DNA of 64,000 bases. Origin: Pelagibacterium sp. (GTDB lineage Bacteria; Pseudomonadota; Alphaproteobacteria; Rhizobiales; Devosiaceae). This document shows positions 52,825-63,137 of the stretch, in pieces. Under the pieces are notes generated by a model. That model did not search any database. It was not told the DNA's origin and was given only the letters and a program-made list of their open reading frames with translations. Made by a program: the position numbers and the translations under genes. The number at the start of each line of letters is the position of its first letter. Position 1 is the first letter of the stretch. The stretch lies in the NCBI RefSeq assembly GCF_965249125.1, contig NZ_OZ252217.1:235736-299735 (forward strand), in the 5' to 3' direction.

Positions 52825-53343
52825 TTGGAACACGCTGTTCTTCAATCGACCAGGGTCTGGCTTCGTCAGTCTCAAGAACGCCGAAATAATGCGCGAACCT
52901 CCAGGCCCTTTGCCAAGGTTAAGCAGGTCGCAGCGTCGCCAGCGAAACGATCCAAACCGGATGCGGCAGTAGCTCGAATGCCGCCGCCGAAGACCGAGAG
53001 AGCCGCTCCAATCCGCTCAATCACATTCCCTCCGGCCAAAGCGTCGATCAGCCTTGCCACCCGGCACGCTCGCGATAATTTACACACCCCTCCCGCCGCC
53101 GCAATATCGTCATCGCGGCGCGCCAACGCCAATGCCTGACTACCCTTTCCAAAACCACAACGTTTCGTTTCGGGGTGTACCACATAGCACTGGTATACAT
53201 ATGTCTGCAGCGCCGGTATCTCGAATGCAGTGGGCACCGCCGCGCACTTTGCACCTGACAGTTGTGCATTCATAAGCAACCGGAAAGTGTTCGAGCCGAT
53301 AGTAGAAGATTTGACGTCCGCTTTGCTGGCCTGAAAGCCAAAA

Positions 53344-53418
53344 TCGGACCGTCCGTAATCGGCCCCGCGGCTGCCGATCTCATCGTTTCTCTTTTGGCCA
53401 ATCACGGCCAAAGGAGAA
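53344..53418. repeat. Junction repeat plus 13-6-13 palindrome upstream of recombinase 1
   Basis: 24-mer at 53344; TTCTCTTTTGGCC-AATCAC-GGCCAAAGGAGAA at 53387-53418, identical at 62270-62301. Confidence 0.8.
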
Positions 53419-53423
53419 CTGAA

Positions 53424-54056
53424 ATGGGATACTCTCGATATGATGCCGCAGCCCGAGGACGGGCTGCATGGAATGCTGGAAAGACAGTCGGGACCAAACG
53501 CCCTCTTACGCAGAAGCAGATCTGGGCTGTCCGTTTCTTCCTGGATCGGGAGGGCCGGGTTCGAGACCGTGCCCTGTTCGACCTTGCCATCGACAGCAAG
53601 CTTCGCGGCTGCGATCTGGTCAAGATCAAGACTGGCGACCTAGTCACAGGGCCGGAAATTCGAACGCGGGCCATGGTCGTTCAGCAAAAGACCGGGCGGC
53701 CAGTTCAATTCGAACTGACCAGCGATGTGCGTGCCAGCCTGCTCTCATGGCTTGAGAAGCGAGGGGGCAGTGTCAGTGACTATGCCTTTCCGAGTCGTAT
53801 TGACCACGGCAATCACATGAGCACACGGCAGTATGCCCTTCTGGTGGACGAATGGGTCACAGCCATTGGTCTTCGATCCTCAGACTATGGCACGCATTCG
53901 CTGCGAAGAACGAAGGCGGCGATGATATACAAGGCAACCGGAAACCTGCGCGCCATCCAAATTCTGCTCGGCCACACCAAGATCGAGAATACCGTTCGGT
54001 ATCTCGGTGTGGACATCGAGGATGCTTTGCTTCTGGCTGAACGGACCGAAATATGA
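53424..54056 (+). CDS. Small tyrosine recombinase (210 aa), copy 1
   Basis: Catalytic R (KLRGCDL), HxxR (HSLR), LGH and Y (TVRY); no arm-binding N-terminal domain. Confidence 0.92.
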   Translation: MGYSRYDAAARGRAAWNAGKTVGTKRPLTQKQIWAVRFFLDREGRVRDRALFDLAIDSKLRGCDLVKIKTGDLVTGPEIRTRAMVVQQKTGRPVQFELTSDVRASLLSWLEKRGGSVSDYAFPSRIDHGNHMSTRQYALLVDEWVTAIGLRSSDYGTHSLRRTKAAMIYKATGNLRAIQILLGHTKIENTVRYLGVDIEDALLLAERTEI

Positions 54057-54060
54057 GCTG

Positions 54061-54240
54061 GAGCGGTCATTCGCTCACCACGGATGACCGCTTCGTTCCA
54101 CTGGCTCTAGGTTCACAGATGCCGACACCGGGGTGGGAACCTGCCGTTCCCGCGACCAGCCCCTGAATGCAGCTATGTGGACAAAGCGCTAATTCGCTGC
54201 AGTTACTCGAACGACCGCTTCACGGTGAATCTAAATTCGT
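54061..54240. repeat. 13-7-13 palindrome and degenerate repeat cluster downstream of recombinase 1
   Basis: GAGCGGTCATTCG-CTCACCA-CGGATGACCGCTT (54061-54093); further GAAYGNCMGC-type arms near 54166 and 54209. Confidence 0.7.
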
Positions 54241-56039: not shown

Positions 56040-56330
56040 ATCATTGATGGCCGACATTCGCGCATAGTGCAGTAACTGGTACTTTGGGCTCGAATCGGTC
56101 GTTCCGGAAGCCAATCGCGAATGGCCGGAATGGCGTCGGATGCTGAATGTCGGCTTTGTCCGCATCCATGTCAGAACCGGTCAGTCCGCTGTCGGCTCCA
56201 AATTGTGCCAATGCCTCGGCGCAGCGGATCCTCTGCTGGTGACCGGCATGAGGTAGTTTTAGGCGGGCAGCTTGCAGCGACCAAGTAGAGCATGCAGACG
56301 TTCGCGTTGGCTTTTATCATGCAGACGACC
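56040..56330. repeat. Degenerate palindromic repeat cluster inside the cargo
   Basis: GCCGACATTC (56049) / GAATGTCGGC (56146) perfect inverted pair; 24-mer at 56177; GCAGACGTTC near 56313. Confidence 0.7.
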
Positions 56331-58509: not shown

Positions 58510-60546
58510 TTGATCATGAGACTTTTCGCGCTCCTGCCGCTGGTGCTCGCCTCGAGCTTGGTGCCGTCTATCGCAGCCGCATCCGAGGATGTGGTGGTCG
58601 TTTACGACGGCTCGGGTTCGATGTGGGGGCAGATCGCCGGCGTCGCCAAGGTCGAGATCGCGCGAGAGGTCATGGGTGATCTTATCGCCACCTGGCCTGA
58701 GGGCGCAAACATAGGGCTCGTGGCCTACGGTCACCGGCGCGAAGGAGACTGCTCCGACATCGAGACCTTGATTGCACCGTCCCCGCTGGACAGGGCGACC
58801 TTCATTTCGACGGTCAACGGGGTCACGCCGCGCGGGCGCACGCCGCTCACCGAGTCCGTTCGTCAGGCCGCCGATCTGCTTTCCTATCGCGACACGCAGG
58901 CTACCGTGATCCTGATTTCGGACGGATTGGAAACCTGCCAGGCCGATCCTTGTGCGCTCTCGGCAGAGCTGGCGCAGCAGGGGGTGAACTTTACCGCCCA
59001 TGTGGTCGGCTTTGATCTGACCGAAGAAGAGCACGCCGGCCTTGCCTGTATTGCGGAGAACACGGGCGGGGTGTTCGTGCCTGCGCAAAATGCCGATGAG
59101 CTGCGCGATGCGCTGGCTCATGTGCAAAACGTTGTCGACCTTCAGCCGCTCTCTCCGCCCGAATCCGTAACGGAGCCTGACCCCGTACCGGAACAGCAGG
59201 TCGATGCCGAGATCGAGCTTGACGTGCCCGCTACAGTGGTCACCGGTGCCAGCTTCACCGTCGCATGGTCTTCCACGATCGACCCGCAGGATTATATCAC
59301 CATCGTTCCCGTTGGGGCGGATGAAAACACTTATGGCAACTACCAGCGGGTGTACGGCAATACAGAGAGTAGCCTGACTGCGCCCGCCGAACCGGGACTT
59401 TACGAGGTGCGCTATGTCCTGGACGAGGGCACACGCGCATTGGGTTCTACCCCGGTGGAGGTTGTCGAAGCCGAAGTCTCAATCTCCGCTCCCGACGAAG
59501 TCACGACAGGTGCCAGTTTTGATGTTTTGTGGTCGTCTTCTATTCATCCCCAGGACTACGTCGCCATCGTTCCTGTGGGCGCGGATGAAGGCACCTACAC
59601 CAATTACCAGCGCGTGCGTGACCAGACGGAAGGCAGCTTGACTGCGCCTGCCGAGCCGGGGCTCTACGAGGTGCGGTATGTGCTGGAGGAAGGCGCGAGA
59701 ACGCTGGCGTCGGACCCGGTGGAGGTGATCGAGGCCGAGATATCTGTTTCGGCCCCGGAAACGGTCACGACCGGAGCGAGCTTCACTGTTTCCTGGTCAT
59801 CCTCGGTCCATCCCCAGGACTACGTGACCATCGTTCCTGTGGGCGCGGATAAAGGCGCCTACACCAATTACCAGCGCGTGCGCGACGACGCGGAAAACAG
59901 CCTGATCGCCCCTGCCGAGCCGGGACTTTACGAGGTGCGGTATGTTCTGAACGAAGGCTCTCGGACGTTGGCATCAGCCTCGATCGAGGTCCTCGAGGCT
60001 GAGGTGATCCTGCAAGGCCCGGACGTCGCGCGTGCACAAACACCGCTGCGCATAAGCTGGTCTATGATCATTCATCCTCAGGACTATATCACCATTGTTC
60101 CGGCTGGCGCCGATGAAGGAAGCTACCAGGACTATATCCACGTCAGGGACGATCTTGAGGGAGATCTCGACGCGCCTGCCGATCCCGGCCTTTACGAGAT
60201 CAGATATGTTCTGCAGGAGGGCGCACGCACGATTTCCAGCCGCATGCTGGAAGTGGTTGGGGCTGACGCTCCGCTCGATGATGGTGTGGGCTTGATTGTT
60301 CCGTCGCAGGCCGGTTCCGGCGAGACGATCACCATTACCTGGTCCGGGGGTGCTGACAGCGCCGACTAGCGCCTGGCGCTTGCCCGGGCCGATCAGGCCG
60401 ATTTCAGCTGGATCGAAGCCTATCGCATCGGCGAGGAAACCACAGTCGAATTGACCATGCCAAATGAGCCGGGCCGCTATGAGATCCGGTATCTTGATAT
60501 CAGCGGACAGGCCGTTCTTGGGCGCGCCATCGTGGAGGTGGAATGA
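58510..60546 (+). pseudogene. Secreted VWA-domain protein with tandem 88-aa Ig-like repeats; premature TAG at 60367-60369
   Basis: MIDAS DGSGS, LISDGLETC; repeats at 264-bp period; frame continues 58 codons past the TAG to a TGA overlapping the next ATG. Confidence 0.85.
59230..60290 (+). repeat. Four intragenic 264-bp tandem repeats
   Basis: (D/H)PQDY.(T/A)IVP.GAD-coding segment recurs at 59281, 59545, 59809 and 60073. Confidence 0.9.
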
Positions 60547-62159: not shown

Positions 62160-62301
62160 TATTAACGCGAACGACCGGGATGGGGTCGGCAGCCGGATGG
62201 CCGCTTATCGAGCGATTTCGCCGAAACCGGACAGGCAGCAATCGGCCCCGCAGCCGCCGGTCTCAGCGTTTCTCTTTTGGCCAATCACGGCCAAAGGAGA
62301 A
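62160..62301. repeat. Repeat cluster plus 13-6-13 palindrome upstream of recombinase 2
   Basis: GAACGACCGG and GATGGCCGCT arms, 24-mer at 62227, palindrome 62270-62301. Confidence 0.8.
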
Positions 62302-62306
62302 CTCCG

Positions 62307-62939
62307 ATGGGATACTCACGATACGATGCTGCAGCTCGAGGGCGGGCTGCATGGAATGCTGGAAAGACTGTTGGGACCAAGCGCCCTCTAACGCAGAAGC
62401 AGATCTGGGCTATCCAATTCTTTCTGGATCGGGAGTGCCGAGTCCGAGATCGTGCCCTGTTCGATCTTGCGATCGACAGCAAGCTTCGCGGATGCGACTT
62501 GGTGAAAATTAAAACCGGAGACCTGGTGACAGGGCCGGAAATTCGAACGCGGGCTACCGTGGTGCAACAGAAGACCGGGCGTCCTGTCCAATTCGAATTG
62601 ACCGGCGATGTGCGCGCCAGCCTACTGGTGTGGCTCGAGAGACGCGGCGGCACAGTCGAAGATCATGCTTTCCCAAGCCGGATCGACCACTCGCACCACA
62701 TGAGCACGCGCCAGTATGCCCGCCTGGTGGATGAATGGGTCACAGCGATCGGGCTTCGATCATCGGACTATGGCACACACTCGCTCCGCAGAACCAAAGC
62801 GGCCATGATTTACAAGGCCACCGGCAATCTGCGCGCCATTCAGATATTGCTCGGCCACACCAAGATCGAAAACACGGTGCGGTATCTCGGTGTGGACATC
62901 GAGGACGCGTTACTTCTTGCTGAACGGACCGAAATTTGA
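62307..62939 (+). CDS. Small tyrosine recombinase (210 aa), copy 2
   Basis: Same catalytic residues; 13 aa differences from copy 1 by eye count. Confidence 0.92.
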
Positions 62940-62969
62940 GCCTGGAGCGGTCATTCGCTCACAACGGAT

Positions 62970-63137
62970 GAGGGTGGTGGCGGCGGCCAGCGCGGCATCC
63001 ATAGCGTTGCCGCCGCGCTCGAGCATTTGAAGGCCGGCCTGGACAGCGAGCGGCTGGGACGTTGCAACAATATTTTGCGCCATCACCGGGGCCTGTGTTG
63101 CGCCATAGGGGGCTGCATAGGAAAACGCGATGGTCAT
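62970..63137 (-). pseudogene. ggt: 5' remnant of gamma-glutamyltransferase
   Basis: [30 protein letters not shown] is the GGT N-terminal signature; it stops at the recombinase-proximal palindrome. Confidence 0.85.

Follow-up and report, generated by a model that had tools for sequence, protein, structure and literature searches.

A palindrome upstream of a widespread mini-recombinase gene probably masks the ribosome-binding site as an mRNA hairpin

In IS10 and IS50 the native start site lies inside and the native mRNA escapes inhibition. An upstream sequence in both elements reportedly pairs with the ribosome-binding site and leaves transcripts from outside untranslated, as Davis, Simons and Kleckner are said to have described in 1985 and Krebs and Reznikoff in 1986. 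The Shine-Dalgarno (SD) sequence of IS200 tnpA is sequestered in a stem-loop of the 5'UTR, inhibiting 30S binding (PMC4513863), and in ISPpu9 a structure in the 5'UTR takes in the ribosome-binding site and lowers translation of the transposase (PMC8450116).

The locus described here lies in a window of 64,000 nt from a Pelagibacterium sp. genome, this window being the whole stretch of DNA that was analysed, and contains two copies of a small tyrosine recombinase gene, each preceded by the same palindrome. Like IS200, it is a small mobile-element gene whose near-consensus SD sits in a stable 5'UTR hairpin and which has a separate terminator-like hairpin. However, IS200 encodes an HUH (Y1) transposase rather than a tyrosine recombinase and has a longer stem (nt 69-138); an antisense sRNA and Hfq also take part there, neither of which is known here, and its sequence shows no similarity to the present element. 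ISPpu9 likewise has a 5'UTR fold that includes the ribosome-binding site, whereas here the hairpin is 32 nt long and no sRNA is known. An upstream sequence that pairs with the ribosome-binding site is also the point of likeness to IS10 and IS50, the difference being that the conserved block found here suggests that the arm may belong to the native mRNA. Tight control of a cassette-type recombinase, which for the present locus is a proposal, is shared with integron intI, but intI has a LexA box and there is none here, and the control that we propose is translational and not transcriptional. The palindromes and the genes that follow them are listed below.

53384..53420, + strand: 37-nt block of copy A, the same in copy B (62267-62303), with the family-wide CGTT start, ending after GGAGAACT
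53387..53418, + strand: palindrome copy A, 13-6-13, as RNA a hairpin with the Shine-Dalgarno in its 3' arm
53411..53416, + strand: Shine-Dalgarno AAGGAG of copy A (62294-62299 in copy B), 7 nt 5' of the ATG
53424..54056, + strand: recombinase A, 210 aa, PF00589 catalytic domain only
62270..62301, + strand: palindrome copy B, 13-6-13, same sequence as copy A
62307..62939, + strand: recombinase B, 210 aa, 13 aa differences from A

Each palindrome is built from two 13-nt arms with a 6-nt spacer between them, and TTCTCTTTTGGCC-AATCAC-GGCCAAAGGAGAA matches exactly in front of both recombinase genes, as the initial annotation had reported (the 32-mer gave 0 matches in 100 shuffled sequences). The same annotation had placed AAGGAG inside the right arm, where it is indeed found in both copies, and had read the single arm mismatch (T53392 against G53413) as a U.G pair in the sense RNA, which is what the + strand gives. 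The palindromes end 5 nt upstream of the start codons ATG 53424 and ATG 62307, and the core TTGGCCAATCACGGCCAA has only two copies in the 3.86-Mb single-contig genome, both in the window. It had further been claimed that flanks and synonymous sites differ between the copies. This held for the synonymous sites, since 86 of 211 third codon positions differ, but not simply for the 5' flank, where homology between A and B extends about 40 nt further from the palindrome, through AATCGGCCCCGC. The 37-nt block is nonetheless the longest run without a difference in the whole duplicated unit, and taking the neutral rate from third codon positions of the A and B genes the chance of 37 straight identities is approximately 4e-9. 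This identity in the face of diverged third positions indicates that the observation is real and that the block is under selection.

Three further features around copy A are noted here. Public annotation has a minus-strand gene call at 52872-53405 (177 aa, no Pfam match) that would begin within the loop of the palindrome; codon positions 1, 2 and 3 have GC contents of 0.60, 0.53 and 0.58, flat unlike those of the neighbouring real genes, and the call is therefore probably spurious. Two Logan contigs (L089 and L090) start at 53391, inside the palindrome, which is best explained by an assembly-graph break at the shared 37-mer rather than by biology. Upstream of the left site unit described below, a stretch of approximately 490 nt that reaches to the LacI-family gene looks non-coding.

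The recombinases match the tyrosine recombinase catalytic domain alone. PF00589 scores 74.7 and 68.9 bits in A and B, respectively (gathering cut-off 27.1), and an N-terminal core-binding domain is lacking from both; R61, K89, H158, R161, H184 and Y193, read from motifs, make up the R..K..HxxR..H..Y set. Against the curated NCBIfam models the proteins remained under every cut-off (XerA 58.8 bits against 220, XerC 57.5 against 335 and the FimB/FimE invertase 20.5 against 222), and the XerD structure was only a remote match (E = 7e-4). Genes A and B differ at 41% of their third positions (59% identity) yet encode proteins with only the 13 differences listed above, and they are old paralogues. 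Of 401 Pseudomonadota genomes sampled, 57 contain the family, which also occurs on many plasmids, among them E. coli IncF plasmids. A literature search on catalytic-domain-only recombinases with such sites found no specific described family. Neighbouring genes vary between loci, and the recombinase gene often sits behind genes of the same direction. In another genome two recombinase copies with the same direction are separated by 5.2 kb (contig DDGC01000028.1, loci L009 and L013), and paired copies bracketing cargo therefore recur.

As RNA, the palindrome of the window folds into a stem of 12-13 bp with a predicted energy of -20.1 kcal/mol and a z-score of -7.25. The minimum free energy structure accounts for 50-69% of the ensemble, with no sign of another fold, and the ATG lies 5 nt past the stem that contains the SD. 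A reading of the palindrome as an intrinsic terminator was rejected because the stem is not followed by a U run: CUGAAAUG comes after it, and a terminator scan did not report it.

The initial annotation had asked whether the palindrome is kept upstream of homologous genes. A scan of one genome per species gave 80 loci from Hyphomicrobiales, Sphingomonadales and one Arenimonas, with proteins 82-100% identical and 78 distinct upstream regions, and in 80 of 80 a related element occupies the same place, made up of CGTT, a pyrimidine-rich arm, GGCC-AAT-NNN-GGCC, a linker of 2 or 3 nt, GGAGAA and the ATG. Across the 78 sequences column identity is 80% in the palindrome and 89% in its apical 14 nt, compared with 42% in the spacer just 5' of the palindrome, 56% at third codon positions and 88% at codon positions 1 and 2. 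This comparison of column identities suggests that the palindrome is under purifying selection.

We compared the predicted folds of these regions (-45 to -1) with those of 600 genes with a GGAG SD from the genome to which the window belongs. The mean energy was -18.9 kcal/mol for the 78 close upstream regions and -11.5 +/- 4.4 kcal/mol for the controls, and GGAG was fully paired as the 3' arm in 54 of the 78 (69%) as against 19% of the controls (Fisher p = 5e-19, for sequences that are not independent). Only 0.8% of control genes match the window copy in both stability and pairing of the SD. With the SD left fixed and only the 27 nt upstream shuffled, mean z came to -3.9 in the close set, -1.6 in the distant set and -0.3 in the control genes. 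In the predicted folds the SD bases pair as G:C or G:U and as A:U, and the left arm varies between C and U opposite G.

Covariation within the close subfamily is weak, since the SD arm cannot vary and leaves little room for change on both sides. The apical stem carries two double compensatory changes to GACC/GGTC (L017 and L087) and three U.G variants. At the pair adjoining GGCC we counted UA 21, CG 21, UG 18 and CA 9. By hand calculation on these counts about 77% can form a pair, where composition by itself would give about 73%. An alignment to a covariance model, a method biased towards structure, has 88% paired cells compared with 85.5% in column shuffles, and cells of the G.U type outnumber those of the A.C type by 69 to 42. 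Folding favours the + strand over the - strand (-18.9 against -17.8 kcal/mol, 49 against 29 sequences, Wilcoxon p = 0.002), and does so for the window copy too (-20.1 against -16.9 kcal/mol). The strand asymmetry and the G.U and A.C counts only modestly back a structure in the sense-strand RNA.

The strongest argument for an SD-sequestering hairpin comes from more distant homologues. Forty loci with 44-77% amino acid identity were fetched, in 34 of which the start codon could be placed, giving 33 distinct upstream regions. Most of the 34 have a hairpin that pairs the SD, built from unrelated sequences; the pairing takes in all four SD bases in 16 of the 33 regions and at least three of them in 26 of the 33. 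One homologue with 71% identity (L094) has the hairpin TTCCC-U-GCCGGC-GUAG-GCCGGC-U-GGGAG, two others pair the SD as GUCCUCC/GGAGGAC (L115) and ACUCUCC/GGAGAGU (L116), and enterobacterial genomes have a ACUCAAAUCUCC-N9-GGAGAUUUGAGU-AUG hairpin. The copy on an E. coli IncFIB plasmid, ACTCAAATCTCC-N9-GGAGATTTGAGT-ATG, forms a perfect stem of 15 bp (-21.3 kcal/mol) in which the SD and the AUG are both paired.

NZ_CP025845.1, 3935-3976: homologue L133 on the IncFIB plasmid, 50% identity, annotated as 'site-specific integrase'

A separate palindrome, GGGACGGGCT-AC-AGCCCGTCCC, lies upstream of the stem on this plasmid. One lineage with about 55% identity (L099, L101, L103, L107, L109, L113 and L122) has no anti-SD arm and instead a G-rich leader, GGGAGGG..GGATCGGAGG; the hairpin is therefore not universal in the family. 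Since unrelated sequences pair the SD in the distant homologues, at 44-70% identity, it is the pairing that is conserved among them and not the sequence. A right arm that is always the SD, with an upstream partner kept across the family, has the signature expected of a function at the RNA level, and such a pattern would not be expected of a DNA site to which a conserved protein binds.

We conclude that the palindrome probably works in the mRNA, folding into a hairpin that covers the ribosome-binding site and so keeping the recombinase scarce. The initial annotation had proposed such a hairpin as one of two readings, and it gains support both from the pairing of the SD in nearly all close homologues and from its reconstruction out of unrelated sequences in distant ones. 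We infer that the left arm is transcribed and that pairing lowers translation. In a transcript that includes the complete palindrome, the 5' arm, which is rich in pyrimidines and mimics an anti-SD (UUCUCUUUU), would pair with the strong SD AAAGGAGAA (AAAGGAG), and the GGCC/GGCC clamp would close the top of the stem. The resulting hairpin of about -20 kcal/mol would block 30S binding, and the recombinase would therefore be made at a very low level, whichever of the variable promoters reads into the mobile gene. A terminator-like hairpin after the stop codon would complete a compact, insulated gene.

54060..54094, + strand: post-stop hairpin of copy A, -22.1 kcal/mol, then TT(T/C)

By eye, both sides of the stem of this second hairpin change across homologues, and the hairpin resembles a terminator; its only match in Rfam 15 was at chance level (E = 0.43). 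In the corresponding region of copy B (62942-62971), homology to all relatives ends at 62971, within the 3' arm, and copy B has therefore lost its right flank.

The GGCC, AAT and GGCC of the hairpin top are each conserved in at least 90% of the close homologues, and the conservation of GGCCAAT...GGCC seems to exceed what the stem needs. A possible though unlikely explanation is that apical GGCCAAT-N3-GGCC is a specific DNA or RNA site for the recombinase or a host factor, superimposed on the masking of the SD and serving autoregulation or regulated opening. The 14 nt are 89% conserved, although pairing alone would allow free covariation in the stem and would demand no conservation of the loop, and autoregulation would suit a site that overlaps the region of translation start. 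However, this top is specific to one lineage, homologues with about 70% identity using GCCGGC/GCCGGC and more distant ones having no GC clamp, and it does not resemble the half-site that the flanking units repeat. No LexA box, GANTC site, Rfam family or terminator signature accounts for its conservation. The alpha-type LexA box GTTC-N7-GTTC had three loose matches in 82 upstream regions, none of them at the palindrome, and the CcrM site GANTC had 0 matches. We consider it doubtful that the hairpin top is a recognition element bound as RNA or DNA by the mini-recombinase or a partner, and so more than a passive brake. If it were, the enzyme's own level, or the state of the neighbouring recombination site, would feed back on how much of it is synthesised, and the element would be the control element of a widespread, undescribed cassette-exchange system of Alpha- and Gammaproteobacteria.

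Against a hairpin that simply attenuates translation stands its own stability, as -20 kcal/mol should nearly abolish translation. Strict fold-back inhibition of the IS10/IS50 kind would leave room for expression, because the gene's own transcripts would start in or after the left arm and be translated, and only read-in transcripts with both arms would be silenced. IS10 and IS50 use such logic, and it would be fitting for a recombinase gene that lands in many contexts, often behind genes of the same direction. A promoter-like motif was, however, not found in or just before the left arm, a scan for the consensus sigma-70 promoter gave no match, and the conserved block begins sharply at CGTT, just 5' of the left arm. 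Several Rhizobiales have by eye a weak -10-like motif, TAGnGC or GATGCT, 7-9 nt before the CGTT block, and we infer that a start site specified by such motifs would precede the left arm. We give strict fold-back inhibition only a slim chance; in the reading that we retain, native transcripts may carry the whole hairpin, for constant attenuation, or may start within it, in which case only read-through transcripts would be silenced, as in IS10.

The other reading in the initial annotation was that the palindrome is the core site of the recombinase, at which crossover between the direct copies, in the manner of loxP or dif, would excise the 8.9-kb segment between them. Cores of the loxP/dif type have two arms of 11-13 bp around a spacer of 6-8 bp. 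The palindrome has the geometry of loxP, dif and FRT sites, with inverted 13-nt arms and a 6-nt spacer beside a tyrosine recombinase gene, and its two direct copies stand beside two recombinase genes. Unlike such sites it lies away from junctions, has no partner copies, varies in arm geometry and always has the SD as its right arm. In 495 kb of homologue loci GGCCAATNNNGGCC occurs 62 times, all 62 at the SD of the gene with no partner site elsewhere, and most loci have a single copy. Conservation runs on for another 90-110 nt upstream, and the palindrome is therefore inside a unit and not at its junction. Among enzymes that are more than 82% identical, the GGCC-GGAG linker is 2 or 3 nt long and the arms have indels, bulges and internal loops of up to 5x2, only GGCC and the SD being fixed; that the right arm should be the SD in every lineage is not required of a DNA site. 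The one switch from B-type to A-type sequence that we identified (L008) falls in AATCGGCCCCGC (53356-53367), upstream of the palindrome, and a different family of palindromes is found, inverted, on the two sides of the gene and again at cargo junctions. These results do not support a core site or excision between the copies, and we regard that reading as very unlikely.

The palindromes of this second family belong to two inverted site units of about 57 bp on either side of the gene. Each unit consists of an outer half-site (A)nGkCmGCTTTC, a spacer of about 17 nt and an inner palindrome AAAGCgGAC-n-GTCCGCTtt. The closing element is CGGCCCC in the left unit and CCACCCC (reverse complement) in the right one. 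Those in the window are as follows.

53313..53366, + strand: left site unit of copy A, outer half-site GACGTCCGCTTTG, CGGAC-C-GTCCG, then CGGCCCC; candidate recombinase site
54130..54193, - strand: right site unit of copy A, GGGGTGG, GGGAAC-CTGCC-GTTCCC, outer half-site; inverted relative to the left unit, degenerate
56144..56200, + strand: solo site unit in the cargo, same type as the flanking units, with no SD palindrome after it
62195..62249, + strand: left site unit of copy B, flanking-unit type

Allowing up to 4 mismatches, the inner palindrome was found 165 times in the 80 homologue loci, compared with 24 times for a reversed control. Many of the matches lie 1-3.5 kb from the recombinase gene, and 116 of the 165 fall outside two narrow intervals set for the flanking units, although some of these are flank sites matched on the other strand. 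In the branch with about 70% identity the top of the SD hairpin is different, but the flanking sites are still of this type. Family-wide retention of the flanking half-site CGTCCGCTT was only partly borne out, a strict match being present in 5 of 34 distant upstream regions, compared with 1 for the control. Since the SD motif never occurs away from the gene and the flanking palindrome AAAGCGGAC-n-GTCCGCTTT recurs at cargo junctions, the flanking units, and not the SD palindrome, are likely candidates for the recombination sites of a cassette-like system.

Two observations on the cargo may be added. In a Pelagibacterium MAG (L008, 2900-3010) the upstream flank of copy B, at the cargo end, is joined to an A-type gene and its downstream sequence (compare 53337-53420 and 62220-62303 of the window); the switch occurs within the 12 shared bases of AATCGGCCCCGC, and this junction could reflect either site-specific exchange or gene conversion. 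Within the cargo ORF at 58510-60369 (619 aa), whose product is VWA-domain containing in public gene calls, positions 59242-60231 are made up of four tandem 264-bp units that are 71-82% identical.

An RNA thermometer or conditional switch of the fourU or ROSE kind, opening under stress, is scarcely credible despite the U-rich strand that pairs with the SD and the one U.G pair in the stem, as a hairpin of -20 kcal/mol with a GC clamp is, to our knowledge, far more stable than known RNA thermometers, and folding showed no competing structure.

The SD hairpin is thus probably a control element of a known kind, on a mini-recombinase that is little studied and very widespread. Among the covariance models of Rfam 15 nothing matches the palindrome, and it would represent a predicted conserved cis-regulatory RNA element that is absent from that collection. 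The analysis separates this regulatory palindrome from the candidate recombination-site palindromes around the same gene. For the proposed cassette-exchange system, the flanking AAAGCGGAC-n-GTCCGCTTT units would be the substrates to use, and expression of the enzyme would call for the SD hairpin to be removed or opened.
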